The notes: generated by a model not told the origin, from the letters alone. A stretch of DNA of 64,000 nt from Patescibacteria group bacterium (GCA_035529375.1 DATKWU010000017.1:2579-66578); one strand, 5' to 3'; counted from the stretch's first letter, positions 8,010 through 50,768 are shown. Translations and numbers: made by a program.

Positions 8010-8032
8010 CTTCTTTGTGTTAGAATGTTTCA

Positions 8033-9578: not shown

Positions 9579-9676
9579 GGTCTGTTTGGCTTCCCTTGTT
9601 AGCCGTAAAAGGAAACAAGGGTTCACCTTTTAGCAAGGTGAAAAGGAGTGATCTTCGGTAAAGATGAAAGGAGAGG

Positions 9677-26112: not shown

Positions 26113-26145
26113 AAAAGCCCTTTATTTCGGGCTTTTTGGAATGTG
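26112..26145 (+). repeat. Copy 6 of the hairpin module, fused directly to the genuine tRNA-Glu gene
   Basis: aaagccctttatttcgggcttttt ggaatgtgt runs straight into the tRNA 3' end. Confidence 0.75.
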
Positions 26146-26218
26146 TGACCCCGAGGGGAATCGAACCCCTGTTTTCAGGATGAAAACCTGACGTCCTAGA
26201 CCGCTAGACGACGGGGCC
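26146..26218 (-). tRNA. tRNA-Glu (anticodon UUC); CCA not encoded
   Basis: The reverse complement GGCCCCGTCGTCTAGCGGTCTAGGACGTCAGGTTTTCATCCTGAAAACAGGGGTTCGATTCCCCTCGGGGTCA folds as a cloverleaf with acceptor, D, anticodon (loop TTTTCAT) and T (TTCGATT) arms. Confidence 0.85.
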
Positions 26219-26230
26219 TGGTGAGCCCAA
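26215..26230 (+). repeat. 16-bp direct repeat ggcctggtgagcccaa (left copy, includes the first 4 nt of tRNA-Glu)
   Basis: An identical 16-mer recurs at 28365-28380. Confidence 0.6.
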
Positions 26231-28364: not shown

Positions 28365-28380
28365 GGCCTGGTGAGCCCAA
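28365..28380 (+). repeat. 16-bp direct repeat ggcctggtgagcccaa (right copy)
   Basis: Identical to 26215-26230. Confidence 0.6.
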
Positions 28381-28478: not shown

Positions 28479-28955
28479 TTGAAGTCGGTAATGAGGAGGA
28501 GAATGATTAAGTCTTCCTTGTACGACGAAAAAACCTTTTATCAAAAATTCATTGAAGATCTTTCCACCTGTCAAAAAGAGGTCATCATTGAGAGCCCCTT
28601 CATTTCAACGGAGAGAGCGAAAAGACTCTACCCGACTTTTGAAAAGTTAGTAAAACAAGGAGTCAGGGTTTACGTTTTGACCAGAGACCCGAGAGAACAT
28701 AGCCAGAGTTTCGAAGTCCAATCCGAGTTTGAAATTCGCAGATTTGAGGTTTTGGGGGTTCAGGTTTTCATCTGTACCGGCAACCATCACCGCAAGTTGG
28801 CTATTTTGGACCGGAAAATACTTTGGGAAGGAAGCTTGAACATTTTATCTCAAATTAAAAGCCGGGAAATAATGAGACGAATAGAGGGTAAAAAGTCAGC
28901 GTTAGAGATGTTTCGCTTCTTGAAATTAGGCAGGTTTATCAAAGAAGGGGTATAA
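28479..28955 (+). CDS. Phospholipase D / Nuc-family (HKD motif) nuclease
   Basis: GNHHRKLAILDRKILWEGSLNI is an HxK(x)4D(x)6GSxN motif. Confidence 0.7.
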   Translation: MKSVMRRRMIKSSLYDEKTFYQKFIEDLSTCQKEVIIESPFISTERAKRLYPTFEKLVKQGVRVYVLTRDPREHSQSFEVQSEFEIRRFEVLGVQVFICTGNHHRKLAILDRKILWEGSLNILSQIKSREIMRRIEGKKSALEMFRFLKLGRFIKEGV

Positions 28956-29843: not shown

Positions 29844-30455
29844 TTAACTTCCTCCCAAAAACACCCTCGGATTGACTGGTATGCCAAAGACGTTGATTTG
29901 AAAGTGCAAATGCGGTCCGGTTGCCCAACCGGTGCTGTCCTCGGTGCCGATGACATCGCCTGGTTTGACTTCCTGGCCCACTTCGACCCAGATGGTCTCC
30001 AAATGGGCGTAGATGGAAGCGAGATTATCGCCGTGATCGATGATGATGTGCTTGCCAAAACCCCAAGAGATTTGACCCGCGTAAACAACGGTTCCGGGCA
30101 TGAACGGGGTGATGAGGTCGCCTTTTTTGCCTTCGGGATTGGCAATGTCAATGCCGGTATGGAAAAGCTGCCAGCGGCTCGATTCGCCGAACTCGAGGGT
30201 AATGATTCCCGTCACCGGCCAGACGAAGGGGCCTTTGATGGTTTTGTAGACGCTGCCGTCAAACGGGTTTAAGATTTGAACCTCATTGGTGACTTCATTA
30301 ATCGCCACCAATCGTTCGGAAACAAAATCCAAACCCGTCCGGGTGAGAATGATCACCCCGATAAGGGGCATCAAGATGACCAGAAGAAAAGCCAGGAGGA
30401 CATAGAAGAACTCCTTTTTAAAAGAAAAAAAGGTCATTATTAAAAAGGGATTCAT
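29844..30455 (-). CDS. M23 family (LytM-like) peptidoglycan endopeptidase with an N-terminal TM anchor
   Basis: HTGIDIA...GTVVYAG...HLHFQ are the M23 motifs. It is the last gene of the T4SS operon. Confidence 0.85.
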   Translation of the reverse strand: MNPFLIMTFFSFKKEFFYVLLAFLLVILMPLIGVIILTRTGLDFVSERLVAINEVTNEVQILNPFDGSVYKTIKGPFVWPVTGIITLEFGESSRWQLFHTGIDIANPEGKKGDLITPFMPGTVVYAGQISWGFGKHIIIDHGDNLASIYAHLETIWVEVGQEVKPGDVIGTEDSTGWATGPHLHFQINVFGIPVNPRVFLGGS

Positions 30456-32212
30456 CGCAGGGAGTATCTTTCGGCCGGATCGGTCGTAATCAGGGGATGT
30501 TCTTTTTCCGAGGCAACCACTTTCAGGGCCACATGGTTTTGGTCGGCAATGACAATCGCCTCGCCCTTATCGCAGGTGAGCAGGAATTTCTGCTCGTATT
30601 CGCTTAGCTTGAACTCTTCGACCACTTTTTTAATGGTGGTCGTGTCCTGGCGCATTAGAATCCGCAGCGAGGCCTGGGAGGCAATCGCCTGACCGTATTC
30701 GTTGCCCAGGAAGTCGTTGGCCGCCTGGGAGATGATGTTGACACCCAGGTAGTATTTGCGCGCCCTTCTGGTCAAGCCGGCAATAAAGCGGGCGCTTTCC
30801 TCATGCTCCAAAAGAATCCAGGCCTCATCAATCACCAAGAGCCGTTTCTGGGGATTGGATTTGACCTGGTTGTAGACATAATTGGAAATGATCAGAATCA
30901 TGATTTGGCGCAGGGATTCGGGCAGGTCTTTGATATCAAAGACGATCAAGCGGTTGTCGAGCTTGATATTGGTTTGCTGGTTGAAGACATGAGCCAGCGA
31001 TCCCTTGACGTATTTCTCCAGCCGGACGCAGAGTTTTCTCTGCCGGTCTTTTTTCAAGGTTTGGTATAGGTCTTTCATCAACGGGTATCTTTGACCTTTT
31101 TTCCGGCCGTGGATTGCCCAGCCAAGGTTTTTGTAAGTTTTGACAATCGCTTTGTCAACAATCGCTTTTTCTTCCGAAGTCAAGCCTTCCACCATTAAGG
31201 AAACGATTTCCGTCAAATCCTGGATGTGCTCGACCAGGTTGTTGCCCTGGCCAAAGGAGCTGACTGAGAAGTCGAAAGGGTTGATTTTTTCCTTGGATTT
31301 GGCCGAGAGTTTGATGTAGGTGCCCTCTAAAGAGCGGGCAAGCTGCTGGTATTCCCGCTCCGGGTCAATGACGATCACTTTCGTCTTTTGAATCAGCTGG
31401 CGCAGGATTTCCACTTTGGCCGCGTAGCTTTTGCCGCAGCCGGATTGGGCAAAGACGATACTGTTGGCGTTATTGAGGCTGAAGCGGTCAATCATCACCA
31501 AGGAATTGTTGGAAAGATTGACCCCATACAAAATGCCGGTTTCCTGGACCAGTTCGGAGGAAGTAAAAGGAAAGGTTAAGGCCGTTGAGGAGCTGTCCAA
31601 ATTCCTTTTTTGGTCAAGGAGATTTTCCGCCCGGGGCAGGATGGATTGGAGGCCTTCAAGCTGCTGGAAAACCGCTGTTTTGGTGTAGAACAATCTCGTC
31701 GCCAGAACCGTCTCCGCCAGGGTGGTCAGCTTTTCCAATTCAACCAAAGAGTCGGCCGTCAGGTGGATATAGATGGAGACTTGGAAGAGCTTTTCCTGGC
31801 CCCGCAGGATTCTGTTTTTTAAATCAACCGCCGATTTTAAGGGGTCAAGCACTTCCGGGCCGATGATTTTTCCCTGCTGTTGGAGGACCCTTCGGGTTGA
31901 CTCCAATTCGGTAATCTTTCGATTAAGCTTGGGCAGGGAGATTTTCGAATCGATCTGTTCCAGGTGGTAAGCAATGTCGATGTCGTGGTTGAAATTAACC
32001 AGATTGTTCAGCCAGCCGGTAGTCGCCACGTAAGGATAACCGGAGACGAAGAGGGTCCGCAGGTATTTGCCGCCCAGATTGAGATAGTTTTGGTATTCCT
32101 TGAGGCCGTCATACGAGATTAAATCCACCTGGTCCTGTTCGCCGAACGAGAGCTCGATCGTTTTGAGACCTCGCTTTTTGTTTTTCTTAAAGTTTGGGAG
32201 TTTGAATAACAT
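30452..32212 (-). CDS. VirB4/TrbE/CagE-family conjugal transfer ATPase (ATPase portion)
   Basis: Walker A FAQSGCGKSYAAK and Walker B LLVIDEAW. The N-terminal YLRTLFVSGYPYVATTGWLNNL is typical of Gram-positive VirB4-like proteins. Confidence 0.8.
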   Translation of the reverse strand: MLFKLPNFKKNKKRGLKTIELSFGEQDQVDLISYDGLKEYQNYLNLGGKYLRTLFVSGYPYVATTGWLNNLVNFNHDIDIAYHLEQIDSKISLPKLNRKITELESTRRVLQQQGKIIGPEVLDPLKSAVDLKNRILRGQEKLFQVSIYIHLTADSLVELEKLTTLAETVLATRLFYTKTAVFQQLEGLQSILPRAENLLDQKRNLDSSSTALTFPFTSSELVQETGILYGVNLSNNSLVMIDRFSLNNANSIVFAQSGCGKSYAAKVEILRQLIQKTKVIVIDPEREYQQLARSLEGTYIKLSAKSKEKINPFDFSVSSFGQGNNLVEHIQDLTEIVSLMVEGLTSEEKAIVDKAIVKTYKNLGWAIHGRKKGQRYPLMKDLYQTLKKDRQRKLCVRLEKYVKGSLAHVFNQQTNIKLDNRLIVFDIKDLPESLRQIMILIISNYVYNQVKSNPQKRLLVIDEAWILLEHEESARFIAGLTRRARKYYLGVNIISQAANDFLGNEYGQAIASQASLRILMRQDTTTIKKVVEEFKLSEYEQKFLLTCDKGEAIVIADQNHVALKVVASEKEHPLITTDPAERYSLR

Positions 32213-32747
32213 CTTTGTTTTTAGATAAAAGCTGATAGGTTTTTTCTTTGATGGGCTGGGTTTTACAGACCCCGGGATTGTAAAAACTGTAAAAAAGCTC
32301 GAGAATTTCCAGGGTGTTGAGGCTTCTGGTTTTCATCCCCAGCCGCTCCAAGCCTTTGCTGATAATGTCCAGGCTGAGATTGATTTGTTCTTTAACCAAA
32401 TTGAAGTCGTTTTTTTCCGGTTCCGGCTCGTAGGGAATCACCAGGTAGAAGCGCCGGGAAAGGATTTTACTGCCCTTGACTAATTGCTTGACAAACTGGC
32501 CATAGTGCTTGATCTGCTGGCGGTAAAGCTTGTTGGTTTCGTGATTGTTTTTGTTGTTGAAAACCTCAAGATAGTTGTCAATCTCCACTTCGCGGACCCG
32601 AATCAAAATCTGGATGGGGCAAGGCAGGGCGTTGATGAAATTTTGGAAATTGTCAATCAAGGCGTCTTGCTCGGCCTCGCTTTTGAGCTCAAAGTTAATC
32701 GCCGAGGTTTCGACCACCACCCGATATTTATTTTCCGGCAGAACCAA
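32187..32747 (-). CDS. Putative N-terminal segment of VirB4, overlapping the downstream VirB4 ORF by 26 nt
   Basis: 186 + 586 aa is about 770 aa, a normal VirB4 length. The two ORFs overlap in different frames. Confidence 0.45.
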   Translation of the reverse strand: MVLPENKYRVVVETSAINFELKSEAEQDALIDNFQNFINALPCPIQILIRVREVEIDNYLEVFNNKNNHETNKLYRQQIKHYGQFVKQLVKGSKILSRRFYLVIPYEPEPEKNDFNLVKEQINLSLDIISKGLERLGMKTRSLNTLEILELFYSFYNPGVCKTQPIKEKTYQLLSKNKDVIQTPKL

Positions 32748-32803: not shown

Positions 32804-33304
32804 TTAAAAGCGGTTTAATCTGAGCCTCCTTTTTTGACCGAACTTAATTAACATTTCGGTATTCCTGGCGTTAATCAGGTTTTCCAATTGAATCAAATTC
32901 AAAACTGATAAATGATTCTTTTTTTCTTTTTTGGCTGGGATTTGTTTATTGTTGACGGCGTTTTTGACTTCATTGTCCGGCTGGGGTTCTTCCTCCCGCA
33001 GATAATCATCGTTCTTGTCGAAGACAAAGAGATGGGGTCTCAAATAGTAAGCGACCAGTAAAATCAGCCAGTTTAAGACAATTCGTTCCTTGACCCTGAT
33101 GGCCAGGGTGAGGAAGATAACCAGGGAAAGAGCGATAAGAATAATCTTGTAAGGATTAAAGTACATCCTCTCCGGCAGAACGGCAAAAACAAAGACGCTG
33201 ATAAAAAGTGGGGCCAAAAGCAGGATTAGCTGGGTCAGGCTCAGGTTGGCGGCGATTTTATCCTCAACCGTGGTCACTTGAGCCGGGATGGGGGTCGTTT
33301 TCAT
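32804..33304 (-). CDS. Small two-TM membrane protein, VirB3-like by position
   Basis: 166 aa with two adjacent hydrophobic helices, lying between the VirB6-like and VirB4 genes. Confidence 0.35.
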   Translation of the reverse strand: MKTTPIPAQVTTVEDKIAANLSLTQLILLLAPLFISVFVFAVLPERMYFNPYKIILIALSLVIFLTLAIRVKERIVLNWLILLVAYYLRPHLFVFDKNDDYLREEEPQPDNEVKNAVNNKQIPAKKEKKNHLSVLNLIQLENLINARNTEMLIKFGQKRRLRLNRF

Positions 33305-34587
33305 GCGTTGACCACCTTTCTGGGCGTTTTAACTTGGGCTTCGCCGAGGACGGTCTCTTCGGTTTGTTTGGCCTGGAGAACATTGACAATCTGGCCGCCG
33401 ACTTTTTTAAGGACCGCCCGGCCGGTGTTGTAAAAAACCAGCTGGTAAACGACGGATTGGGTTTTGATTAAGGTAAACATCAGGCCAATACCGATTAAGA
33501 CCGCCATCAGGCCCGAGCCTTCCGATTCGCCTGGCAGGGTCAAAAAAGAGGCTGCCAGTTGGATGATCACCACATGGATAAAAACGGAAAAGATGGTGGT
33601 GAGATAGCTTTTAATGGCGATTTCGGAAAAATCAGCCAGTCTGGGAATCGCCCAGAGCATAAAGATTAAAGGCGAAAGGACCGCCCCCAGGGCAATGATA
33701 ATTAGTCGACTGATGTAAAAAAGGAGCAAAACAACGGTGGTGATAATGAAAAGAACGCCGAAAACCAGGGTGATTACCAAGACGCTTTCTAGGGTCATTA
33801 CCGGTGGGTTAAAGGCGTTTTCAATCCAGGCCTGGTTCAAGCCGCCGGTGGCATTGAGAACGGCCGAGACCAGGGCGTTGTTGCAGCGCAGCACCCAGTC
33901 CACCATGAAGATGGAGACATTGGCCAAGAGGAAAGCTAGAAGAATTCGAGGGAGCAGTTTTTTCAGTTCCACCTCTTCAAAACCGAAAGTGGTGGCGCTC
34001 ATGAGCTGAAAGCCGAGCAGGATAATTACCAGGACAAAGAGCGAATCGGTGATCCCCAAAATTATCAGCCAAAAGTTAAAAATGGAATGATTGGTCGCCA
34101 CTAAAGGAGTGGTGGTTAAAAAAGAAATGACGCTGTCGGTCAAGGGCTTGGTGGCGCTCTGGATGATATTCTTCAAAAAGCCGGCAATCGCCTCGGTCAA
34201 AACCTGGGTCAGGCCGTCTTCGGGCTCGACCGTTTCCAGAGGCGCCAGTTCGATTTGACTGGTCTCGGTGCCCGGTGAAGGCGTGGTGAAGGAAGTCGTC
34301 AGGATTGAAGAAAAAGTACTGGCCGAGAGAATTAAAACCAAACCAATGAGGGCATTCCTAATGGTTATTTTAGCGTCTTCTAAGGCTTCCGGATTGCCGC
34401 TGGAGGTGAGATACAGATAAGCGCCGCGGATTAAGAAAAAAAGGACAAAAACCGAAGCCAGGATGGAAAGGTTGGCGATCAGGTCGCTGGTAAAAGACTG
34501 GATTTCAGGATACTGGTCAAGAGCCAAGGCCAAAGGAGGATTGAGAAGGAAGATTAAGGCAGTCAATAAAACTGCTAGGACAACCAT
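33301..34587 (-). CDS. Polytopic membrane protein with an N-terminal pilin-like (VirB2-like) domain fused to a VirB6/TrbL-like multi-TM region
   Basis: The N-terminal IRGAYLYLTSSGNPEALEDAKITIRNALIGLVLIL aligns with GGVGYITSTGNPENLEKSKKTIFYSAIGLAVTL of the upstream pilin. Six or more TM helices follow. Confidence 0.5.
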   Translation of the reverse strand: MVVLAVLLTALIFLLNPPLALALDQYPEIQSFTSDLIANLSILASVFVLFFLIRGAYLYLTSSGNPEALEDAKITIRNALIGLVLILSASTFSSILTTSFTTPSPGTETSQIELAPLETVEPEDGLTQVLTEAIAGFLKNIIQSATKPLTDSVISFLTTTPLVATNHSIFNFWLIILGITDSLFVLVIILLGFQLMSATTFGFEEVELKKLLPRILLAFLLANVSIFMVDWVLRCNNALVSAVLNATGGLNQAWIENAFNPPVMTLESVLVITLVFGVLFIITTVVLLLFYISRLIIIALGAVLSPLIFMLWAIPRLADFSEIAIKSYLTTIFSVFIHVVIIQLAASFLTLPGESEGSGLMAVLIGIGLMFTLIKTQSVVYQLVFYNTGRAVLKKVGGQIVNVLQAKQTEETVLGEAQVKTPRKVVNA

Positions 34588-34604
34588 TGTTTTTAACTGT
34601 TAAT

Positions 34605-34931
34605 TTATTGACCAAAGGCGCTTTGCGCCGTCTGGGTGACAATATTAACCAGAACATAAGCTCCCAAGGTAACGGCCAAGCCGATCGCCGAATAAAAAAT
34701 CGTCTTTTTTGATTTTTCCAAATTCTCAGGGTTACCGGTGCTGGTAATGTAACCGACCCCGCCCCAGACAAAGAAAAGAGCGGCCAGGATCCCGGCCAGA
34801 GTGACCAAGATTTCGATAATGTTGGTCATGAAATTTTGGACTTTGGAAACGTCGTCAGCTTGGGCCTGAACTTGGGAAGCAAAAATTAAAGCAGTTAAAA
34901 CGAAAGATTGCAGCGTCAACAAGATTCTCAT
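34605..34931 (-). CDS. T4SS pilin-like protein (VirB2/TrbC-like)
   Basis: Signal peptide, two TM helices and a conserved TSTGNPENLEKSKKT loop. RBS aaaggaggtg. The ORF in the track starts at GTG 34934. Confidence 0.5.
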   Translation of the reverse strand: MRILLTLQSFVLTALIFASQVQAQADDVSKVQNFMTNIIEILVTLAGILAALFFVWGGVGYITSTGNPENLEKSKKTIFYSAIGLAVTLGAYVLVNIVTQTAQSAFGQ

Positions 34932-35105
34932 CACTCACCTCCTTTACTAATAGGCAGGCGATAAATAAAAAAACTGCCCTCTCGGGCAGCCAAACGCTGA
35001 ACTCTAACTATTTAGCTTATAGCAAATTGTAAAGTAAAAGTCAAATTTCACTCCAATTGAGTAAAAAACTCTTTTGGGGTAAAATACGAAGTATGAGGGG
35101 CTTTT

Positions 35106-35936
35106 ATGCCAGCAAGTACTGATCTCGTTAGCCGGGCTTTTGACCTGAAAGTTCGCTATTTGGTTAAACCTCTTCCCGAATATTTGGCCGATTTAGAGTC
35201 GGTTTTAACTAAAATTAAGTCGATCTATCCGGCCACTTATCAACTACATTTTAAAAGAATCAATATTGGCGCCCAACAGACCGCTGACTACCTCAATGAG
35301 AAAATTATTCGAGAGAAAAAAGTAAAAACCGTAGATTATGTTGGCGAAATTAATAAAGGCGTTAATGATATTGACTTGGTTATCAATTTTATTAGCGGTA
35401 AGAGATTTGATGTTTCCTTAAAATTCTATAAAAAGAAAGGGCGTGTTAATTACTGGAATCCCACCCTGGATAGTTTATTAAAACATTTAACAGATAAAAA
35501 ATTTAGGGAATATTTGGACGATCGAAAATTAAAAAAGTACCTTCAGGAAATGGCTAATCTTAAGGATATTAGTTTAGCCTCAAAAAAAATTACCCCTTAT
35601 TGGGTAGCGGAAGCGGTTAATATTTTAACTGCTTTTTCCCAAAAAAACCAGAAAGTTTTTAGAAATAGATTGGCGGAAAAATTAGGCTATATCAATTTAA
35701 GCCTTACTTGTATCGTTGATGAGAACGGAGTTTTTAAAGAACTAATTGATGTGCATCCTCTACTAATTGAGAAGCTGATTAAAGGAAAGGGAAAGTTGAA
35801 AATCAAAGCTCACGGAATCGCAATAAGAATTTTCCTGGATGACCAACTCCTGACCGATTTGGCTGTTTACGCGCAATCTGCCTCTGGTGGGAGAACTGGA
35901 GGCCTGAGGATCGCCGCTTGGACGCCCCACTCCTAA
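35106..35936 (+). CDS. Hypothetical protein, a candidate restriction endonuclease partner of the convergent methyltransferase
   Basis: It is convergent with the MTase gene and overlaps its 3' end by 4 nt. It has no clear motif. Confidence 0.3.
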   Translation: MPASTDLVSRAFDLKVRYLVKPLPEYLADLESVLTKIKSIYPATYQLHFKRINIGAQQTADYLNEKIIREKKVKTVDYVGEINKGVNDIDLVINFISGKRFDVSLKFYKKKGRVNYWNPTLDSLLKHLTDKKFREYLDDRKLKKYLQEMANLKDISLASKKITPYWVAEAVNILTAFSQKNQKVFRNRLAEKLGYINLSLTCIVDENGVFKELIDVHPLLIEKLIKGKGKLKIKAHGIAIRIFLDDQLLTDLAVYAQSASGGRTGGLRIAAWTPHS

Positions 35937-37750
35937 CGAAGATCAATTGGAAATAAATTCTCAAGTTCAGTTTTGGAAATTTGAGTGTTACCTGTGATAT
36001 ATTGAATGACTTTTAATTTGTCTTTCGATCTTAGCTGCTTGACGAGATTTTCAGTGGAGATTTTAGTTTTGTTCGGGAGAAAGATTACGTTGACGTGATT
36101 TTCACCAATAAATTTCATATTTGGAGGAACAACTGCCACTTTTAGCTTAGCTGAATTAACTGCGCCAGTGATTCTGTTAACGACAATCGCAGGCCCGGTA
36201 TCATAATTCTTTGTTTTGATGTATTGGGGTTTTTTAGGATTGTTTGTTAACCTTAAGCCCTTTGAAGTAATGTTATGAGCCCAGATTAGGGGAATTCCCT
36301 TTTTAGAATCTTTAGTTAGTAAATTTTTATTTTGATTCCAAACCAATCTTCCTGTTTTAACTTGAAAACCTAAGTTAGACAATGTTGTTTTTCCTTGAAA
36401 AGATTTCTTAAGATAAGCCGGATTTTCTGTAAAAATTGTAATGCCGTTTTTTTTGAAAATGTAATTGCCTTTGTTTTCCCCCTTTTTTAACACAAGCAAC
36501 ATTGTTGTTTGAAGAGCTTGATGAAATAGTTTTGGGCTATTTAAGATTGAGAGATACTCTATGTTTGAATGTTTAATAATATATTTTCTTAGGTCAGCAA
36601 AATAAGCCCCATTATTCATTGAAGGTGGAAGCACGAAAGCTAAATAACCTCCAGGCCTTAATAAATCTAGGCTAAGTTTGATAAAAAAGGCAAATATATT
36701 GGGTCGGCCACTGACGACTTCCTGGTATTTCTTTTTAATCATATTTTCAGGTTTGAATTCAAAATAAGGAGGATTACCGATTATAAAGTCAAACTTTTCT
36801 TTTGTTGTGTGCTTTAAGCTATCAACAGTCTCAAGATTTGCCCGGGGAACAACGACGCGAGCTCTTTTAATTAATTCTTCTTCGATATCCCAACCAAATA
36901 AAGAAGGGTTTTTAAAATATTTACTGGCTGTTAATAAAAATTCTCCAGTACCGCAGGCTGGGTCCAAAATTTTAAGACCCTTTTTATTTTTGGGCAATTT
37001 TTTAAATAGTTTTTCCCTTATTGAGCGGGGAGTAAAATATTGTCCCTTAGTTTTCCTATATTCACGATTTGTATTTTGAATATACTGGATTGTCAGTTCA
37101 TGGAATTCTTCTCTTAACCTGGAAAGAGAAAAGCCATTTGTTACTGATAAGTCAGTGGATTTTCTTATTAGACCACAGAATTTTCCTCTAATCTCTAGCT
37201 TTTTAGGAGAATATTTTTTGAATTTTTTGCTCCGAGGCTCCAAGAAAATTTTACCACCGCTTTTTCTAAAAATTTTCAGCGTGGCGCCTTTTTCCGTAAT
37301 AGCAACTACAGTATCCCCGGATTCAGCGGTTATTTGATGCCTAATAAGCACGATGTCGTTATCAATTATACCCATGTCAAACATGCTGTCTCCAACGACC
37401 TTTAAGGCGTAGTGAGGAAAGCGAGTATCAAGTTTGATATTTTGAGGAATTTCTATGTCTTCTGGATTTTCGATAGGTTCTATTGGTTTACCAGCGGCGA
37501 TATTTCCCAACAAAGGAATTGTTTTGGTTTTATTAGTGGGTATGATGCCGCGGTTTTTATAAGGAGCTCTTTTCAAGTAATCTTTTTTCTCTAGTTCCTC
37601 GACAAAATACTGGGCAGTGCTGAGGTTAGTAGCGCCGAGGAATTTGGCGATTTCCTTTAGCGAGGGAGAATATCCGTTTTTAGCGATAAACGAGGTGATG
37701 AAGTCGAGCGTTTTCTTTTGCTTTTTGGTTAAAGGTTTTAGCTCTTGCAT
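35933..37750 (-). CDS. Fusion protein: full-length LexA repressor (wHTH plus S24 self-cleaving peptidase) joined to a gamma-class N6-adenine DNA methyltransferase (TaqI-like)
   Basis: The LexA part includes NIAAGKPIEP (an Ala-Gly cleavage site), VVGDSMFDMGIIDNDIVL (catalytic Ser) and GDTVVAITEKGATLKIF (catalytic Lys). After a linker at about residue 200 come MTase motif I ILDPACGTGEFL and motif IV IIGNPPYF, then a TRD-like C-terminus. It is one uninterrupted 605-aa ORF. Confidence 0.7.
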   Translation of the reverse strand: MQELKPLTKKQKKTLDFITSFIAKNGYSPSLKEIAKFLGATNLSTAQYFVEELEKKDYLKRAPYKNRGIIPTNKTKTIPLLGNIAAGKPIEPIENPEDIEIPQNIKLDTRFPHYALKVVGDSMFDMGIIDNDIVLIRHQITAESGDTVVAITEKGATLKIFRKSGGKIFLEPRSKKFKKYSPKKLEIRGKFCGLIRKSTDLSVTNGFSLSRLREEFHELTIQYIQNTNREYRKTKGQYFTPRSIREKLFKKLPKNKKGLKILDPACGTGEFLLTASKYFKNPSLFGWDIEEELIKRARVVVPRANLETVDSLKHTTKEKFDFIIGNPPYFEFKPENMIKKKYQEVVSGRPNIFAFFIKLSLDLLRPGGYLAFVLPPSMNNGAYFADLRKYIIKHSNIEYLSILNSPKLFHQALQTTMLLVLKKGENKGNYIFKKNGITIFTENPAYLKKSFQGKTTLSNLGFQVKTGRLVWNQNKNLLTKDSKKGIPLIWAHNITSKGLRLTNNPKKPQYIKTKNYDTGPAIVVNRITGAVNSAKLKVAVVPPNMKFIGENHVNVIFLPNKTKISTENLVKQLRSKDKLKVIQYITGNTQISKTELENLFPIDLR

Positions 37751-37798: not shown

Positions 37799-39604
37799 TT
37801 GAAGATAAAAATTAAAATGAAAGAGGCAGAATACGACAAACTAATTTCCCAGTTGGAAGCGGAAGCATCATCCGTTAAATACGATTTTCAGATTGCTGAC
37901 GCGATCAATAAGATTATTGAGGAGCAAAAAGGCAAGCTAACCCCCAGGCAGGAACAGCAACTAAAATGGGAATACTTGCTATTTAGGCTTATGACCAAGA
38001 ATAGTTTTGCGTCCGATGGACTGAAAACTGAGCGGTTCAAGCCAATGGCAACATTTACAGATGGCTCGATCTTTCCTGACCCAGACGGGTTTCCTGATAC
38101 AGCACTTGGTTATTTTGAATCAAGAACGGTTTCTTCTACTAACCCCATCCTCAAAGCTAGATATTTGGACTTTCTGTGGGAAAAATCCAAATCAAAAAAT
38201 AAACACCTTTTTGCCCGCGAGTCTATCGATCAATATCTGTTAACTGTTGATGAGTATGACAACGAAGATGCCATTATGGAAAGGCTGGACGGACTTCAGA
38301 GAGCAACTGAACTCTGTCTAATTTTTGAGTCTAAACTTCCCAAGAGGCCCCTCACTAAGAAGGTAGTAGCCAAACTTGTTGAGCAAATTGATAAAACTGC
38401 TCAGACAGGTAATTATCGCTGGTTGATAGAGATGTTTGAGTTAGTGCTAGCGTTGCCGTCTTTCTTTTCCCAGAAGCAAATAAAAGATTACATTGCTTTA
38501 TGCAAGGCTGCTGCCGCTCACTACCATTCTGACCAAAACTTTCATCTTCAGCGTAGCTTCCTCGATCTTAAAGCAGAGATGACCAAATTGCTTAAAATCT
38601 CAGTAGTTAAACAAAAAGCGATTCAAGAGGAAATTGGGCAGTCCTTTATCGACGAAGCAGAGGCAAAGTCTGCGAGCGGTTTGGTTAAAATACACTTCCT
38701 CCAGGAGGCAATCCAGCATTACTCTAAACTTGGAAACAAACAAAAAGTCAATGAACTAATTGCTGAAGTAAAGGCTGCTACTAAACAGGCAATCGATAAT
38801 AAGGAATTTAAGGAACTTTCTTCTACCATCAAAATTGACTCAAAGGTTATCGAAAAAATGAAAGCTAGTCTTGGTACGGGCGAAGAAGTGCCAGAAAGAA
38901 TGGGAACACTTCCTACTTTTTTTCCCAACTGGGATCACGCAGTTAAGCTAACAGCAAAGCTCAGTAAAAAATATGTTTTTCAGCATTTGGTTGGAACGGT
39001 TCATTATGGCAGCCGATATCCTATTAGCCGTCCGCAGACTCCAGAGGAGGTACAAGAAGACCATGTTATGCAGAATTTCAAAATAGAAGCAGAACTTGCT
39101 TTAAAATGGCTTACTGGATTTCTTGCGGAATTGATAAAAGAAGGCAAAGTCTCGTTAACAGACTTCCAGAAATTTTTTTCTAAACTTCAAGTCGTTGATA
39201 AAGATACCTACGAGACGGTGTTGGTGGGTCTCGATTCTTATTTTAAGGGCGACCACTTCCATGCTGCCTATGTTCTTACATTGCAACTAGAGGATTTTTT
39301 AAGATACTTATTGGCTGTTTTTGGAGGTCAAACAACAGTTCCCGAAGCGGGTGCATTTAGAGAGAAAACTCTCGGCTCTGTGCTTGTGGAGCTAAAGCCT
39401 TATTTTTCAGATCTAGTTTATCATTACATCTCTTGGGTGACGGAAGATTATCGGGGATTTAATTTGCGCAATAACATTGCCCACGGGTTCTTTAAGAAAA
39501 AACATGCTAATCCGATTTACTCAACGGCTATATTACACATTTTCTGTCTCCTGATAGCCAATACCAAAATCTCAGTTAAGGAGCAAAAAAAAGATGAAAA
39601 ATGA
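37799..39604 (+). CDS. Large alpha-helical protein with a C-terminal HEPN-like Rx4HG motif (Abi-like defense candidate)
   Basis: C-terminal NLRNNIAHGFF fits Rx4HG. The product is 601 aa. Confidence 0.4.
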   Translation: MKIKIKMKEAEYDKLISQLEAEASSVKYDFQIADAINKIIEEQKGKLTPRQEQQLKWEYLLFRLMTKNSFASDGLKTERFKPMATFTDGSIFPDPDGFPDTALGYFESRTVSSTNPILKARYLDFLWEKSKSKNKHLFARESIDQYLLTVDEYDNEDAIMERLDGLQRATELCLIFESKLPKRPLTKKVVAKLVEQIDKTAQTGNYRWLIEMFELVLALPSFFSQKQIKDYIALCKAAAAHYHSDQNFHLQRSFLDLKAEMTKLLKISVVKQKAIQEEIGQSFIDEAEAKSASGLVKIHFLQEAIQHYSKLGNKQKVNELIAEVKAATKQAIDNKEFKELSSTIKIDSKVIEKMKASLGTGEEVPERMGTLPTFFPNWDHAVKLTAKLSKKYVFQHLVGTVHYGSRYPISRPQTPEEVQEDHVMQNFKIEAELALKWLTGFLAELIKEGKVSLTDFQKFFSKLQVVDKDTYETVLVGLDSYFKGDHFHAAYVLTLQLEDFLRYLLAVFGGQTTVPEAGAFREKTLGSVLVELKPYFSDLVYHYISWVTEDYRGFNLRNNIAHGFFKKKHANPIYSTAILHIFCLLIANTKISVKEQKKDEK

Positions 39605-40373
39605 TGCTCTGATTGCCAAAAGGCTCATTGAACAAACTTTGACCAACTGGGTCAATCCTGAGATTGAAAAAAGGAAGAGCGAAGATAAACTTCCATCGGA
39701 TTTTAGGATTAAGGCTGCTCAGGTAATTTTTTCAGTAGGCGGGCCACCTTTAGTCAGAATCAATAGCGAAGTTAAAGTTATTATAGAAGCCAAGTTTAAT
39801 CGTCCTATTGAGAAAGGCGAGGCGGTTTTGAATAAGGATATTGAGGATATACGCTCTTTTCGCCTTATTGATGAAGAAAAAGATTTTGGACATATCACCA
39901 TCGTAAAACTCACAAAAGGTTGGTTTGTGGGCTTTAGCTTTATTTATGATGTCTCGAAATCCAAAGAAATTTATGATATAGCCATTGAATTTATGAAGTC
40001 TGCTCACGCTGAACTTGAGGCCAAGAGATATCGTCCTTTTGTAGAAAGCGCTTTTGTTGCTGCCGAGAACCTTGCTAAGGCAAGAATTTATCTCCTTCCC
40101 GATCAAGAAATTAGGAAGACAAAGACCCACGGCCTCGTGCATGGAAAGGTAAATAGATATGCTCGGACGAGCAGTATCATAAAGACTGATCAAAAAGATG
40201 TCTTCAATGAACTGAAAAAATTAAGAGAGAGGGCTCGTTATGACCCAAGGTTTAGTATGGAACACAAAACTGCAGAGGAAATGTTCGAAGCGCTCAGGGA
40301 ATTAAGCAAGGAGGTTTTTCGCTATCTTGTTAGATTTGGTGAATTATCTGATAAAGCAAGCAGCGTTAGTTAA
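39594..40373 (+). CDS. Hypothetical protein with a possible Rx4HG motif, translationally coupled to the upstream HEPN-like gene
   Basis: IRKTKTHGLVHG contains R-KTKT-H-G, fitting Rx4HG. There is an 11-nt overlap with the upstream gene. Confidence 0.35.
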   Translation: MKNDALIAKRLIEQTLTNWVNPEIEKRKSEDKLPSDFRIKAAQVIFSVGGPPLVRINSEVKVIIEAKFNRPIEKGEAVLNKDIEDIRSFRLIDEEKDFGHITIVKLTKGWFVGFSFIYDVSKSKEIYDIAIEFMKSAHAELEAKRYRPFVESAFVAAENLAKARIYLLPDQEIRKTKTHGLVHGKVNRYARTSSIIKTDQKDVFNELKKLRERARYDPRFSMEHKTAEEMFEALRELSKEVFRYLVRFGELSDKASSVS

Positions 40374-40505
40374 CAAATACCAGAAGTTGTTGAGTTTGTT
40401 TGGCCGTGAACTCTGGGTATTCTCGGTAGTTTGCCCAATCTATTCTTCCGAAATCATACCATCGTTCGAGTTAACAACAAAACAACTTTCTTTCTAATGG
40501 TATAA

Positions 40506-41351
40506 TTGGGACAGAGCAAGTTCATGGAATTAGGGCAGGTAATCAAAAGAGTCCCGGGCTTCAGAAGTGGAAGCAAAATAAAGGCGGGAATAGCCTCAGT
40601 CTTCTACTTGCTCGCAATTTTTTTCATCTTGCTGATTGTTGTCCCTCCTCCTGAAACTGAAAAATCCCAGATTGAAGAACAAGCGGCTACGCCCACTGAA
40701 GGTATTCTGGAATCTGAGACTGAAGAAGAGAGAGAAGAAGTTTTAGTTGCCAGGGTTATTGACGGCGACACCATTGAGATAGAAGGGGGACAAAAGGTCC
40801 GCTACATTGGGATAGACGCACCGGAATCGGTTGACCCGAATGAGCCGGTCGGTTGTTATGCCCAGGAAGCTTCTGAGAAGAACAAAGAGCTGGTTTTGAA
40901 TAAAAAAGTCAGGCTTGAAAAAGATGTTTCTGAAATGGACCGATACGGAAGACTGCTCCGTTATGTCTGGGTTGGAGATTTGCTGGTCAATGAATATTTG
41001 GTCAGGGAAGGTTACGCTCAGTCGAGCACCTATCCGCCTGACGTCAAATATCAAGACAAATTCATTGAGGCTCAGAAAAAAGCGAGGGAGGAAGAAAAGG
41101 GCCTTTGGAGCATTGACTGTGATACTTGGGGTCAATTCACACCTACTCCAAGGCCAACTCTTAAGGCTACCCCGACACCGACTCCAATTTCCAAAAGCAC
41201 AATTTATACATGTGATTGTTCAAAAACTTGCACACAAATATCATCCTGCGAGGAGGCCCAATACCAACTTAATGTTTGTGGATGTTCAGCTAGAGATGGG
41301 GATAAAGATGGGATAGCTTGTGATGGCCCCCCTCTTAATTGCCAGAAATGA
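40506..41351 (+). CDS. Membrane-anchored thermonuclease (SNase-like) with a C-terminal Excalibur calcium-binding domain
   Basis: VIDGDTIEI...RYIGIDAPE...DRYGRLLRYV is the SNase fold. DGDKDGIACDG is an Excalibur DxDxDGxxC motif. There is an N-terminal TM helix and a Thr/Pro-rich linker. Confidence 0.8.
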   Translation: MGQSKFMELGQVIKRVPGFRSGSKIKAGIASVFYLLAIFFILLIVVPPPETEKSQIEEQAATPTEGILESETEEEREEVLVARVIDGDTIEIEGGQKVRYIGIDAPESVDPNEPVGCYAQEASEKNKELVLNKKVRLEKDVSEMDRYGRLLRYVWVGDLLVNEYLVREGYAQSSTYPPDVKYQDKFIEAQKKAREEEKGLWSIDCDTWGQFTPTPRPTLKATPTPTPISKSTIYTCDCSKTCTQISSCEEAQYQLNVCGCSARDGDKDGIACDGPPLNCQK

Positions 41352-41517
41352 AAACTGTATTTTATTTCAAGAGACCTTGCTAATTGTGTCACGATTATCA
41401 ATAAAGCGAAACAAGGTTCCTCGCAAAGCGAGGGTTCTTATCAAAAATTGAAGTTGTTCGTAGCGCAGGGCATTAAGCGCTGAAATCTTGGTGGCTCGTT
41501 TAGCGGGATAAATACCA

Positions 41518-42672
41518 GTGACGATTCCCACCAGAAGCGAAAGGAAAACAATGGCTAATCGTGCTTCAAAAAAGAAGATAAAAAAACCTCGGAATTACAA
41601 GAGAAGACGCGATATGAATAAAATAATTGCCTTTAGTGAAGAAAACCTAAAATCGATATTTTATGTAAGAAGAGGAGAAACAAAATATATCGGGTCGAGA
41701 GAGTCAACGATCCTAGAGTTTAAAGAAAATTTTAACTTTGGAAGTTTAGGAAAATATGCAAAGATAATGGCATCTTTTGCCAATACGAAGGGCGGGTACA
41801 TTGTTTTTGGGATCAAAAATAGTCCCAGAGAAATTATCGGAATAAATTTAACAAAATTTGAAAACATTGATATAGCAAAATTGACAGGAAGCCTTAATGA
41901 CATCTTCTCACCCGCGATTGAGTGGGATATAAGGTCGCACAGATGGAAAAGTAAAGATTTTGGGATCATATACACACACGAAAGCGATGAGAAGCCGATT
42001 ATTGCTACAAAAAATTATAAAGACATTATTAAGGAAGCAGAAATCTATTTTAGATACTATGGGAGAACGGAAACAATTAAATTTTCTGAGTTAAAGCAGA
42101 TTATACTTGAAAGGTCAGATCAGGAAAAAAGGGCATGGATGGAAGTTTTCAAGGAAGCCCTAGAAATTGGCCCTAAAAATGTGGCCCTACTAGACACTTT
42201 TAAAGGAAAGATTCAGGGTTTGGGTAAAACAGTTTTAATTGATGAAAAACTACTCCCAAAGCTTAAATTTATTAAGAAGGGAGAGTTTACTGAAAAGAAA
42301 GGCGAGCTTACCCTAAAGCTTGTAGGAGACTTAAAAACTGTTCCAGTTGGATTACTAAAAGAACGAAAGGTTATTTTGGGAGAAGATATTTACAGATATC
42401 GTGCAAGTAATGTTTGTAAGGTAGTTGAAAAAGAGATTAAAAAACAATTCAGAGTCGGGTCAGAGCATTTAAAAGCCTGGAGAGTCCATAAAATAAGAGA
42501 ATCTGGAAAACCATCAAAATTACCCTTTAGAAATGAATATTGTGAATATAAAGAGGCAGAAAGAGATTATCGCTACTCGAAGGCCTGGATAGATTTTCTA
42601 GTTGAAAAGTATTCTGACCAAAAAAAGTACAATGAACTAAAGAGACTACCGCAAAATCCACGTGTCAAATGA
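41518..42672 (+). CDS. AlbA_2 (Schlafen-like divergent AAA) domain protein with a Lys-rich N-terminus
   Basis: ESTILEFKENFN...KIMASFANTKGGYIVFGIK is the AlbA_2 signature. Confidence 0.55.
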   Translation: MTIPTRSERKTMANRASKKKIKKPRNYKRRRDMNKIIAFSEENLKSIFYVRRGETKYIGSRESTILEFKENFNFGSLGKYAKIMASFANTKGGYIVFGIKNSPREIIGINLTKFENIDIAKLTGSLNDIFSPAIEWDIRSHRWKSKDFGIIYTHESDEKPIIATKNYKDIIKEAEIYFRYYGRTETIKFSELKQIILERSDQEKRAWMEVFKEALEIGPKNVALLDTFKGKIQGLGKTVLIDEKLLPKLKFIKKGEFTEKKGELTLKLVGDLKTVPVGLLKERKVILGEDIYRYRASNVCKVVEKEIKKQFRVGSEHLKAWRVHKIRESGKPSKLPFRNEYCEYKEAERDYRYSKAWIDFLVEKYSDQKKYNELKRLPQNPRVK

Positions 42673-45290: not shown

Positions 45291-45569
45291 TTACGGCATA
45301 AATGGTTTTTTCCAGGTTGAGGGTTCAAACATGAGGTCAACAATACGAGGATCAACGTCAAGGGTGTCAGCGAGTTGATTTCTGAACTTGGGATAATCCT
45401 CGTCAGTTGTCAGAATAACGTATAATTGTGTTATGAGAGAAAGGGTTAAACAGGCAATAGCAAAAAGGTTTTTGGATTTTTCCATGCGCGGCAGTCTCGA
45501 TGAATACCTTAATCCTACCCAAGAACTTAGCAACTTTGGAAAATGTTTGGTTAAAAAAGTAGTCCCCAT
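45291..45569 (-). pseudogene. Gene fragment duplicating the 3' end of the 46060-46806 gene
   Basis: Its C-terminal FRNQLADTLDVDPRIVDLMFEPST matches RDQLANALDVDPRIVDLMFEPST of the longer gene. About 75 nt are nearly identical (45305-45380 versus 46090-46165). Confidence 0.4.
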
Positions 45570-46059: not shown

Positions 46060-46806
46060 TTAGCTAAAATTTGGATGCTGGAAAAGAAAATAGGTTGAGG
46101 GTTCAAACATGAGGTCGACAATACGTGGGTCAACATCAAGAGCGTTCGCTAGCTGATCCCTCTTTTTAGGGTAAATCTCATCAAGAGAAACGAGACCGTT
46201 TTCCAAAAAAGCGATGAAGCCGGGTTCAACATCAAGGTAGGCGGCGGCAACCTCTGGGGCTATCCCTTGACCCTGACGAAGAGCTTTAATAATCACACCT
46301 GCCTTACATACTAGTTCAGCTTCCTGCCGTTCCGCTTCGCTACCTTGCAACTTTTCGTACAGATTTCCAGAGCGTTCCACAAGCTCATCATTCCATTCGC
46401 GAGTGAAACCGTCTTCTTCACCGCCTGCTAAGAGAATTTCAAAAAGATCGGATCCTATGCCAAGTTCCAGAAGCTCCACTACTTCCTCTGGCTCATATAC
46501 CCTTTCTGAAATAGCAATTTCGCTTAATTCTAAAAGTTTCGTTTGGTCTAAAAAACTCGCTTCCTTAATTGAGTCCAGAAGTTGAATGGCTGTTTCTTGA
46601 TCGGAAGAAGCAATGATTCCTAAAAGGCTGGATTCTCCGCTAGACTGGGCTTCATCCATTTCACGCACCCTACTTTTTAGCTTCGATAATATTGGCTGCT
46701 TTTCGGCATTAATTTTTTGCTGCTCCAGGCGCCGCCCTTGCCAGACTTCGGCAATTTCTTTTGGCAGTTCGGCAGGAGGTCTCAATTCTTCGGGATTGAT
46801 AGCCAT
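46060..46806 (-). CDS. Acidic hypothetical protein (248 aa)
   Basis: Glu/Leu-rich helical ORF lying between the conjugation-module genes. Confidence 0.45.
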   Translation of the reverse strand: MAINPEELRPPAELPKEIAEVWQGRRLEQQKINAEKQPILSKLKSRVREMDEAQSSGESSLLGIIASSDQETAIQLLDSIKEASFLDQTKLLELSEIAISERVYEPEEVVELLELGIGSDLFEILLAGGEEDGFTREWNDELVERSGNLYEKLQGSEAERQEAELVCKAGVIIKALRQGQGIAPEVAAAYLDVEPGFIAFLENGLVSLDEIYPKKRDQLANALDVDPRIVDLMFEPSTYFLFQHPNFS

Positions 46807-46867: not shown

Positions 46868-47647
46868 TTAAATAATTGCCTGCCAAACCTTCTTGCCTAC
46901 TCCCTCTTTTTTTATTTTCCCTGCCGTGGTTAAAAAGAACTGAATTTCGTAATTTTCTTCATCTTCCTGGGTTTCCCTGATGAATTTGTTTAAATATGCT
47001 TGCATGTATCTGTCCGAGCAGACTAGGAGAATGGTCGGGAAGGGGTGGCGGGTGGTTTTCTCCCAAAAATTGGATTGATAATAATTAAAAAATCTAAAAA
47101 GACGATGCCGCAAGGCATAACGGGGCGTTTTCCTGACAAACATTTCCAAAAAATATCTTTTGGTTTCACCCTGCGGCTCTTTGATGACGAAATACAAATC
47201 CGGCAGGGGTTCGGGGAGATAATCGTGTTTAGCCAAATCGGTCCGGTGGAAAAATTGGAGTTCGGCCTTGTCTTCCAAGCATAACTTGACCAGATGAAAA
47301 TAGATATCAGCTAGGAAAAGGCAGTGGTTGATGAATTTTCTTGAGCGTAAGTTTTCGCGATAGATTCGGTTAAGCAAGGCCTGGTTAATTTCTGGTTCTT
47401 TTCTCAAAACACCAGCCGCCTTTGACTTCAGGTAATAAATGGCTGGCTGGATGTTTTCTCCAAATTTTCGGGAGTAGATTCGACCAAGATACTTTTTCTC
47501 GGTTAATTCTTTCAGCCAGGCATTGATTCGCCCGGGGTTTTGGTGGTTGAGGAATTTTTGAAGATGATGACGATTGAGAAAGCGGAAGCGATATAAAAGA
47601 GTGAGGATTTCTATTTGCTTTGAGGTTGGTTTTTTTGTTTGATTCAT
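46868..47647 (-). CDS. Replication-relaxation family-like protein (putative plasmid/ICE replication or relaxase accessory factor)
   Basis: The N-terminal wHTH-like KQIEILTLLYRFRFLNRHHLQKFL is typical of the replication-relaxation family. 259 aa. Confidence 0.45.
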   Translation of the reverse strand: MNQTKKPTSKQIEILTLLYRFRFLNRHHLQKFLNHQNPGRINAWLKELTEKKYLGRIYSRKFGENIQPAIYYLKSKAAGVLRKEPEINQALLNRIYRENLRSRKFINHCLFLADIYFHLVKLCLEDKAELQFFHRTDLAKHDYLPEPLPDLYFVIKEPQGETKRYFLEMFVRKTPRYALRHRLFRFFNYYQSNFWEKTTRHPFPTILLVCSDRYMQAYLNKFIRETQEDEENYEIQFFLTTAGKIKKEGVGKKVWQAII

Positions 47648-50764: not shown

Positions 50765-50768
50765 TCAA

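Follow-up and report, generated by a model that had tools for sequence, protein, structure and literature searches.

Results

Organization of the pilin-VirB6 locus

The window analyzed here, a 64,000-nt stretch of DNA from a Patescibacteria group bacterium (GCA_035529375.1, DATKWU010000017.1:2579-66578), carries a type IV secretion system (T4SS) operon in which a free VirB2-like pilin gene is followed by a gene that fuses a second pilin module to a VirB6-like polytopic membrane domain. Six genes, all on the minus strand, follow one another in the order pilin, pilin-VirB6, PrgI/VirB3, TrsD-like VirB4 N-terminal domain, VirB4 ATPase, and M23 hydrolase. Coordinates below are window positions unless another locus is named. 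A first-pass annotation of the window, made from the sequence alone, had singled out the first two genes.

The free pilin, identified by Pfam matches, hydropathy, and conserved placement, is encoded at 34605-34931 when read from an ATG (108 aa) or up to 34934 when read from a GTG (109 aa). The ATG at 34931, positioned 6 nt 3′ of a strong Shine-Dalgarno (SD) motif (AAGGAGGTGA), is the likelier start. The protein scores 45.5 bits against PF18895 T4SS_pilin (threshold 26.6) and 34.7 bits against PF04956 TrbC/VirB2 (threshold 27.9), and reaches 36.9 bits with the NCBIfam Mbov_0395 pilin-like model, under the cutoff of 40. Hydropathy resolves three hydrophobic spans (residues 1-22, 34-65, and 78-101) and a loop (TSTGNPENLEKSKK), giving a layout of predicted signal peptide, first transmembrane helix, charged loop, and second transmembrane helix. 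By profile, layout, and gene context, we assign the free 108-aa protein as a VirB2/TrbC-type T4SS pilin, with cleavage of its signal peptide predicted. A pilin-module hidden Markov model run over the window detected no pilin genes beyond the free pilin and the fusion.

The fusion open reading frame (ORF), encoding 428 aa, spans 33301-34587 (stop codon 33301-33303) and starts 17 nt downstream of the pilin ORF on the same minus strand. Both ORFs, with their loops TSTGNPENLEKSKKTIFYSAIGL and TSSGNPEALEDAKITIRNALIGL, lie where the first-pass annotation had placed them, and its description of the small protein as a pilin with signal peptide-transmembrane-loop-transmembrane architecture agrees with the two above-threshold Pfam matches and the hydropathy profile. 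The fusion protein opens with a predicted signal peptide (residues 1-23, 34519-34587), within a hydrophobic span covering residues 1-24 in the hydropathy profile. Cleavage is predicted after ALA (ALA|LD); A22 is invariant across 84 homologs within a VFAA consensus.

The signal peptide is followed by the fused pilin module (residues ~24-101, 34285-34518), a two-helix hairpin with the loop TSSGNPEALEDAK delineated by BLASTP, PF18895, and AlphaFold2. The predicted hairpin helices comprise residues 27-61 and 66-101. An acidic S/T/P-rich linker (residues ~102-124, 34216-34284; FTTPSPGTETSQIELAPLETVEPED) connects the hairpin to the polytopic domain and is disordered in the model, with predicted local distance difference test (pLDDT) values below 50 over residues 102-124. 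Linker positions P103, L114, P116, and P122 are near-invariant, as is G125.

These linker features raise the question of a polyprotein, in which the linker is cut after membrane insertion and releases a minor or tip pilin in a 1:1 ratio with VirB6. The segment is disordered, is predicted to lie outside the cell, and carries the near-invariant positions; pilin paralog arrays are common in Patescibacteria, and some VirB2-family pilins are proteolytically matured (RP4 TrbC, F TraA). We nevertheless consider such processing very unlikely. The only protease encoded by the operon is the M23 peptidoglycan hydrolase, no recognizable cleavage motif was found in the linker, and linker length and sequence vary within the family. 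Moreover, two genes would suffice to make the two products, as in the unfused locus L087 described below.

Relationship between the fused module and the free pilin

BLASTP aligned pilin residues 12-102 with fusion residues 7-99, yielding 34/93 identities (37%), 55% positives, and E=2e-14 under composition-adjusted statistics, a sequence similarity far beyond chance. The pairwise alignment thus bears out the earlier proposal that the N-terminus of the second protein repeats the pilin module. Fusion residues 41-96 score 31.7 bits against PF18895, over the threshold of 26.6, and this family is matched by 84/84 members of the fusion family; TrbC is matched by 15/84. The module reaches 25.4 bits with the NCBIfam Mbov_0395 pilin-like model, under the cutoff of 40.

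The free and fused classes both keep the loop motif Y-x-TS-x-G-x-P-x-x-L-x-x-[AS]-K-x-T-I...IGL, and its retention in the fused class argues for retained pilin-type contacts. The objection that the N-terminal region might be a generic signal-anchor, raised together with the initial proposal, fails on the above-threshold PF18895 match in every family member and on the kept loop motif. The fused module is covalently continuous with VirB6 in 133 genomes and, as encoded, is not a free, releasable subunit; it should be called a pilin-derived domain, and not a pilin, unless it is cleaved.

The VirB6/TrbL-like domain

Residues ~125-428 (33304-34215) constitute a polytopic domain whose VirB6/TrbL-like character is indicated by TrbL_4 matches across the family, profile comparison, and AlphaFold2 modeling with Foldseek. 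TrbL_4 (PF19597) is matched by 62/84 family members, with a best E of 2e-12, and precomputed annotations of many homologs combine PF18895 with PF19590 (TrbL_3) or PF19597 (TrbL_4). A search with residues 121-428 retrieved 618 relatives at E≤1e-3 among 1.84 billion cluster representatives. One relative (P0217, phmmer E=3.7e-14) scores 32.4 bits against PF04610 TrbL/VirB6, over the threshold of 25.9, and a fused relative (P0171) has a precomputed PF04610 match.

Comparison of a broad profile, built from fused and unfused relatives (A2), with the sequences of the Protein Data Bank (PDB) revealed TrwI/VirB6 of R388 as the top match (7o3v_F, E=5.9e-4; hhalign E=0.004). The identity of chain 7o3v_F as TrwI was confirmed. 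The alignment pairs the block R-L..LGAVLSPL..LLW.LP...F with TrwI KIALALLAGLGPLFILALIWQPTHRFF, the common motif being LGxxxSPL...W.P. A narrower family profile (A1) found nothing among the PDB sequences, and its hhalign comparisons with individual TrwI and TrwL sequences were not significant.

A domain-only AlphaFold2 model built from a more diverse alignment reached a pLDDT of 88.1 and a pTM of 0.81 and contains six long helices. It superseded a first full-length model, computed from close homologs only, with a pLDDT of 64.7 and TrwI matches at E 0.1-0.4. The five best Foldseek matches of the domain model in the PDB are all TrwI chains, with probabilities of 0.96-1.00 over ~255-278 aligned columns. 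Homology to TrwI, the polytopic layout, and encoding together with VirB3 and VirB4 indicate that residues 125-428 are a true VirB6/TrbL homologue, as judged from profiles and a predicted structure. The suggestion that the C-terminal part is VirB6-like is thereby sustained by the TrbL_4 matches of the family, the PF04610 match of P0217, the A2-TrwI alignment, and the structural matches.

The first-pass annotation had counted six or more transmembrane helices, which is roughly correct. The polytopic domain does show six hydropathy peaks and six long helices, but loop charges evaluated by the positive-inside rule best fit an external amphipathic helix (residues 123-158), five membrane spans, and a cytoplasmic tail rich in K/R. 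Agrobacterium VirB6 has been reported to have the same N-out/C-in topology, which would be compatible with a pilin hairpin having its C-terminus outside.

The remaining genes of the operon

The PrgI/VirB3-like protein (166 aa, 32804-33304) has two transmembrane helices, and the start codon of its gene overlaps the fusion stop codon (ATGA). It scores 26.5 bits against PF12666, 0.5 under the threshold of 27, and aligns with residues 4-135 of NF045975, the Mycoplasma VirB3-VirB4 fusion model. A separate gene for the VirB4 N-terminal domain encodes a TrsD-like protein (186 aa, 32187-32747) with NCBIfam matches to VirB4_plasma (127-292), conju_CD1110 (18-191), and TrsD (NF041427). The VirB4 ATPase (586 aa, 30452-32212), identified by NCBIfam and Pfam, scores 350.7 bits against NF045971, 'VirB4-like conjugal transfer ATPase, CD1110 family', over the cutoff of 325, and matches the Pfam families TraG P-loop, AAA_10, and DUF87.

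The TrsD-like and VirB4 ATPase genes overlap by 26 nt (30452-32747), and this split is kept in 72 loci; unsplit VirB4 proteins of 723-744 aa occur in more distant relatives (L084, L085, and L087). A frameshifted VirB4 as the source of the 186-aa and 586-aa pair is ruled out by recurrence of the arrangement across 72-80 independent loci. The last gene of the operon encodes an M23 peptidoglycan hydrolase (203 aa, 29844-30455; PF01551, 96.1 bits) with a VirB1-like function.

No VirB7/9/10-like gene was found in the six-gene operon, and VirB5 and VirB10 are absent. Profile matches place the operon with the monoderm mating-pair-formation class MPF_FATA: a CD1110-family VirB4, a PrgI-type VirB3, and a cell-wall hydrolase are encoded, without VirB7/9/10. 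Just beyond the M23 end lies a PLD-like (PLDc_2) nuclease-family gene on the plus strand (28479-28955). Homologs recur in the vicinity of the operon in 13 loci, and one lies at the margin of locus L082. The gene may have an accessory role in the element, akin to that of Nuc-type nucleases on conjugative plasmids.

Distribution and conservation of the fusion

A word-indexed search retrieved >1,300 homologs (clusters at 90% identity). The best 120 are almost all 405-438 aa long, belong to Patescibacteria (Levy-, Woese-, and Daviesbacteria), and are called 'pilin' where they carry a name. A scan of one genome per GTDB species identified at least 133 genomes with the fusion, from which 80 loci, 46-95% identical, were fetched; these include Gottesman-, Shapiro-, Woyke-, and Berkelbacteria. 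Some metagenome-assembled genomes hold two fusion copies per contig or genome.

Mapping of ORFs and phmmer matches revealed the identical six-gene order in every fetched locus that was long enough, with a pilin of ~108 aa and a fusion of ~420-440 aa. In 79/80 loci the gene immediately preceding the fusion is a free pilin ortholog, PrgI is kept in 77/80, and M23 is the last operon gene in 66. Relatives only 25-35% identical in the VirB6 domain still present a free pilin, then the fusion, then VirB3/VirB4. The fusion had been called an unusual T4SS architecture; this is apt when it is set against model T4SSs, but within a large clade (at least 133 species genomes) the fusion is the rule.

The same distribution bears on whether a sequencing or assembly error, by a missed stop or a frameshift, joined a second pilin to a separate VirB6. 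Related unfused pilin-VirB6 pairs with overlapping stop and start codons do exist, and a single base error there could mimic a fusion. The chance of this is negligible, since an ORF of 400-440 aa recurs in 133 independent genomes and >1,300 clusters and relatives at 25% identity are also fused; recurrence across 72-80 independent loci rules out a missed stop or misassembly.

Of the best 150 cluster representatives, 53 carry the pilin module, and all of these except P0171 have a low-GC-type amino-acid composition (GC, guanine-cytosine content). The unfused full-length relatives appear to be of high-GC type. Composition and genome size suggest a link between the distant fused relatives and the Candidate Phyla Radiation (CPR). 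Because one fused example (L085) has a GC of 0.595, we do not claim a strict restriction of the fusion to CPR.

Age and origin of the fusion

Pairwise comparison of pilin modules gives mean identities of 60% between free modules, 46% between fused modules, and 32% between free and fused modules. The nearest neighbour of every module (159/159) belongs to its own class, and the fused modules form a distinct 'F' class. The two classes never intermix and their mutual identity is low, which argues that duplication and fusion predate the divergence of these lineages. A recent local duplication is ruled out, as free and fused modules of the same locus are no more alike (33%) than those of different loci (32%).

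Two high-GC relatives (GC 0.67 and 0.74; VirB6 domain 21-28% identical) show the parts unfused. In L087, the stop codon of a T4SS_pilin gene (109 aa) overlaps the start of an unfused 285-aa TrbL_3 VirB6, the two genes together occupying 1493-2679; downstream come genes for a VirB3-like protein, VirB4, a CHAP hydrolase, a coupling protein, Replic_Relax, and an integrase. In L088, the pilin lies just downstream of an unfused VirB6 (both within 8001-9599), and VirB4 is present. These loci share gene families and neighbourhood with the window operon but have a single, unfused pilin gene, and a pilin beside an unfused VirB6 is likely the ancestral arrangement. As a separate observation, both loci suggest that VirB2-like proteins may not be confined to Patescibacteria among monoderm-type T4SSs.

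In other high-GC relatives, a signal peptide or anchor with a ~100-aa Pro-rich linker replaces the pilin, so the VirB6 N-terminus evidently tolerates different leaders. The pilin-derived module could, by the same token, be an exapted anchor that adds only two transmembrane helices and a signal peptide and makes no pilin-like interaction, as the lower conservation of the fused class (46% vs 60% for the free class) would also allow. We find this doubtful: the cytoplasmic loop motif hardly varies among fused modules even though the lineages are only 46-95% identical, PF18895 is above threshold in the entire family, and the free pilin gene is always kept adjacent.

Leader and translation signals

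A terminator scan located a stem-loop in the pilin leader (34972-34991, minus strand), composed of GGCTGCCC-GAGA-GGGCAGTT followed by T7. It is situated between a promoter-like TTGACT-N17-TATAAG sequence and the pilin Shine-Dalgarno motif. A related (A/G)CTGCC-loop-GGCAG(T/C) stem with a T-run occurs upstream of the pilin start in 25/74 loci, mostly at 20-57 nt, whereas 0.01 per 250 nt would be expected from the background. Some stems vary in a compensatory way, as with GCCACCAC...GGTGGT in L011. The stem-loop could act as a leader terminator or attenuator or as an operator, and might even represent an inverted repeat of oriT type. An Rfam scan of the window returned two tRNAs only, with no match for the leader stem-loop.

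Upstream of the free pilin, an SD-like motif is found in 55/78 loci, compared with 11/79 for the fusion gene, start calls being noisy. Such a contrast would suit a free pilin made as the major subunit and a platform protein made in stoichiometric amounts.

An ICE-like element around the operon

The operon appears to be part of a larger mobile element. A type IV coupling protein (883 aa, 47792-50443, minus strand) matches the Pfam families TrwB_AAD_bind, T4SS-DNA_transf, and TraG-D_C and is a likely partner of the operon. Beside it, a 259-aa Replic_Relax protein (46868-47647, minus strand; PF13814, 46.5 bits) is a candidate relaxase of MOB_C type, PF13814 having been equated with CONJScan MobC (PMC5357655); in other loci, too, its homologs neighbour the coupling protein. 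A large serine recombinase (579 aa, 50754-52493, plus strand; Pfam Resolvase and Recombinase) is a candidate integrase, and its 3′ end overlaps a tRNA-Lys gene (52432-52504, minus strand).

The window thus contains the gene set of an integrative and conjugative element (ICE): mating-pair-formation genes, coupling protein, relaxase, and integrase. GC is 0.44-0.50 in the operon and 0.32-0.39 in the flanks, which is suggestive of an element. A direct-repeat search over the ~24-kb region yielded no convincing flanking repeats; serine recombinases need only ~2 bp. The coupling protein, relaxase, and serine recombinase suggest that the operon is part of a ~24-kb ICE-like element.

Comparable genes accompany the operon elsewhere. 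The same three kinds of gene lie directly beside the operon in ~22/80 loci, and a coupling-protein homolog is found within 6 kb of the fusion gene in 18/80. In L082 the coupling protein is the next gene after M23, and a serine recombinase homolog is located just downstream of M23 in 11 loci. The relaxase, coupling protein, and serine recombinase fit ICE-borne conjugation better than a chromosomal 'epibiosis' apparatus. The 'episymbiont-type' pilus of the first-pass annotation is accordingly not established, as the same three genes point to ICE-borne conjugation.

About 11 kb of defence-like genes separate the operon from the coupling protein and relaxase. The run at 37799-42672 encodes a DUF7380/DUF4209 protein (601 aa), a HEPN protein, a secreted SNase-Excalibur nuclease, and a Schlafen AlbA_2 protein. 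No homologs of these genes were found in the other 80 loci, and the run has the appearance of cargo, or of a defence islet, carried within the element.

Also among the defence-like genes of the ~11 kb, a 605-aa LexA-methyltransferase fusion (35933-37750, minus strand) combines a complete LexA repressor with an Eco57I/N6_Mtase-type N6-adenine methyltransferase. The LexA part (residues 5-198) contains a helix-turn-helix and an S24 self-cleaving peptidase and scores 144 bits against TIGR00498 (cutoff 111). Homologs lie near the operon in 5/80 loci. As read from its domains, an SOS-cleavable methyltransferase or regulator of this kind would be unusual on a mobile element.

Two further repeats were noted. 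An exact 16-bp direct repeat (GGCCTGGTGAGCCCAA) at 26215-26230 and 28365-28380, next to tRNA-Glu (26145-26218), encloses an NYN-domain gene and a 191-aa tyrosine-integrase fragment. This ~2-kb region is probably what is left of a small integrated element distinct from the T4SS one; the repeat was rejected as a T4SS-element end since it bounds this integrase remnant at tRNA-Glu. A 92-nt direct repeat of 77% identity occurs at 45314-45405 and 46092-46183, 778 nt apart, with the second copy in the 3′ part of an unannotated 248-aa ORF (46060-46806, minus strand).

Discussion

We interpret the fused module as an ancient pilin duplicate mounted on the VirB6 platform of a compact, MPF_FATA-related T4SS, whose most likely job is conjugative DNA transfer and in which the tethered hairpins prime or anchor the free pilin; we put the probability of this reading at roughly 55%. 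The partner cells in such a transfer would likely be Patescibacteria.

We infer topology, stoichiometry, docking, and pilus formation as follows. After Sec insertion and signal-peptide cleavage, the pilin hairpin would sit in the membrane with its charged loop in the cytoplasm and both ends outside. The flexible external linker of ~25 residues would connect it to the first helix of VirB6. Each VirB6 protomer would then hold one hairpin at or near a VirB2 recruitment site shared by VirB6 and VirB3, as in R388. The tethered hairpins could serve as an integral first layer, or base, on which polymerization of the abundantly translated free pilin is nucleated and anchored. Such a layer may replace functions of VirB5 or VirB10 of diderm systems, both absent from the operon. 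The first-pass suggestion that the fusion may reflect how such pili are anchored or assembled is a reasonable one.

The R388 system supplies the structural frame for this model. There, VirB6 forms the pentameric base of the stalk, with the VirB2 recruitment site on α1/α2 and the assembly site on top (PMC11294453, PMC12624023). Transmembrane helices of VirB3 and VirB6 jointly bind VirB2 (PMC11294453, PMC12624023), and at rest the inner-membrane helix of VirB10 covers the whole VirB2 site, a proposed checkpoint (PMC11294453).

The VirB10 precedent invites a different role, that of an autoinhibitory plug in which the hairpin blocks entry of free pilin in cis until a signal arrives, such as cell contact or the VirB4 ATPase. 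The VirB10 helix plugs this same VirB6 site in R388, and Patescibacteria-type systems are devoid of VirB10, the operon having only six genes; the flexible 25-residue linker would permit docking and undocking; and the fused class has conserved residues of its own (TIRNA, where the free class has TIxYS). A plug need not keep the full loop motif, however. We regard it as unlikely, while acknowledging that nothing here separates a primer or anchor from a plug.

Several observations weigh against the primer or anchor model and the ICE context that we attach to it. The query domain alone scores 18.5 bits against TrbL_4, under the threshold of 27, and the Foldseek matches to TrwI have TM-scores of 0.31-0.44, E of 0.011-0.11, and identities of 14-16%. 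Conservation is lower among fused modules (46%) than among free ones (60%), as a relaxed or changed function would allow. Contact of the fused hairpin with VirB6, VirB3, or free pilin is a prediction. T4SS pili grow from the base, and a permanently tethered layer could obstruct subunit insertion except where the linker is cut or the structure stays short. Patescibacteria T4SSs have yet to be observed with a pilus, which reviews treat as a possibility only. Finally, the coupling protein and relaxase of the window lie 12-13 kb from the operon, and a coupling protein and relaxase lie within 6 kb in only ~1/4 of loci; this gap and this proportion leave conjugative function unproven for the family as a whole.

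A more specific version of the primer or anchor model is possible, and we offer it tentatively: the fused module would be a working, non-releasable pilin, five copies of which form a membrane-proximal ring, so that the VirB6 pentamer itself provides the first turn of the pilus. If true, the fusion would be a natural covalent snapshot of the VirB2-VirB6(-VirB3) complex. In R388, this recruitment complex was inferred from co-evolution and mutagenesis only. If true, the reading would further show that a VirB2-type pilus can be made by a monoderm, ICE-borne machine that has neither VirB5 nor VirB10. The current model of T4SS pilus biogenesis rests on the inferred recruitment complex, and a tethered VirB2-VirB6 pair offers a natural test of it: the family would serve as a reagent for structures, and its thousands of paired sequences would serve co-evolution analysis.

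The fusion may also account for a gap in existing surveys. In 3,035 genomes, Quinonero-Coronel et al. 2025 (PMC12102498) found VirB2-like genes to be widespread, with 'VirB2 arrays' of two or more genes abundant in Microgenomatia, and VirB6 to be 'scarce' in the same class, 'suggesting extreme sequence divergence'. For Gracilibacteria, VirB6 has been reported as absent. The only fusion discussed there is VirB3-VirB4, which was not found, and the commonest relaxase is MOB_C. VirB6 domains hidden in genes named 'pilin' would give exactly this pattern of scarce VirB6 and abundant VirB2 arrays, and the fusion probably explains the 'missing' VirB6 of Microgenomatia. If so, the 'missing' VirB6 of this class, and possibly of other CPR classes, is hidden in 'pilin' genes, and censuses of CPR T4SS components, along with the 'minimal' models drawn from them, need domain-level instead of best-hit scoring.

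A full-text literature search found no paper describing a pilin-VirB6 fusion. Within the literature searched, the architecture seems to be new, even though domain annotations in databases already display it. The advance is incremental, and all its parts belong to known families. It bears on whether CPR T4SSs move DNA or serve an epibiotic life, this subfamily probably being a conjugative ICE machine.

Comparison with known systems

Among Patescibacteria, Wang et al. 2023 (PMC10633639) showed the T4SS of Southlakia epibionticum, with the pilin array that belongs to it, to be essential. Its VirB6-like protein, SEML1_0013, is large and separate and is encoded beside six stand-alone pilins, whereas the window has one pilin fused to a compact VirB6. 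Patescibacteria T4SSs and the window operon have in common a monoderm, MPF_FATA-related core (PrgI/VirB3, TrsD, VirB4, and VirB6) and T4SS_pilin genes. Published Patescibacteria loci are mostly without a nearby relaxase or coupling protein; the window element has both, together with a serine recombinase. Other Gram-positive systems are said to lack VirB2-like pilins, and a 2025 FEMS review names Patescibacteria as the sole monoderm case.

R388 TrwI and TrwL (PDB 7O3V and 8RT9; Mace et al. 2022, Mace and Waksman 2024) provide the closest structural reference, TrwI being the VirB6 homologous to the C-terminal domain of the fusion. As a diderm system of MPF_T type, R388 has VirB5, VirB7-11, and an outer-membrane complex, and it makes VirB2 and VirB6 as two proteins; in the window, a free pilin gene adjoins a gene that makes pilin and VirB6 one polypeptide.

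On the monoderm side, Firmicutes ICEs carry the CD1110-family VirB4, whose equivalog cutoff the window VirB4 passes. The Mbov_0395 pilin-like protein of the Mycoplasma ICE resembles both the free and the fused module, and the PrgI, TrsD, and VirB4 proteins of the window together tile the Mycoplasma VirB4 model. The Mycoplasma ICE fuses VirB3 to VirB4 (Mbov_0397), whereas the window keeps these parts in three separate genes and fuses pilin to VirB6 instead. VirB3-VirB4 fusions, the extended VirB6 proteins of Rickettsiales, and TraG of the F plasmid are precedents for the fusion of neighbouring, physically interacting subunits or for extra domains on VirB6. The partners in those cases are hydrophilic domains or ATPases, and the literature search brought up no pilin module among them; in the window, the extension is a pilin module.

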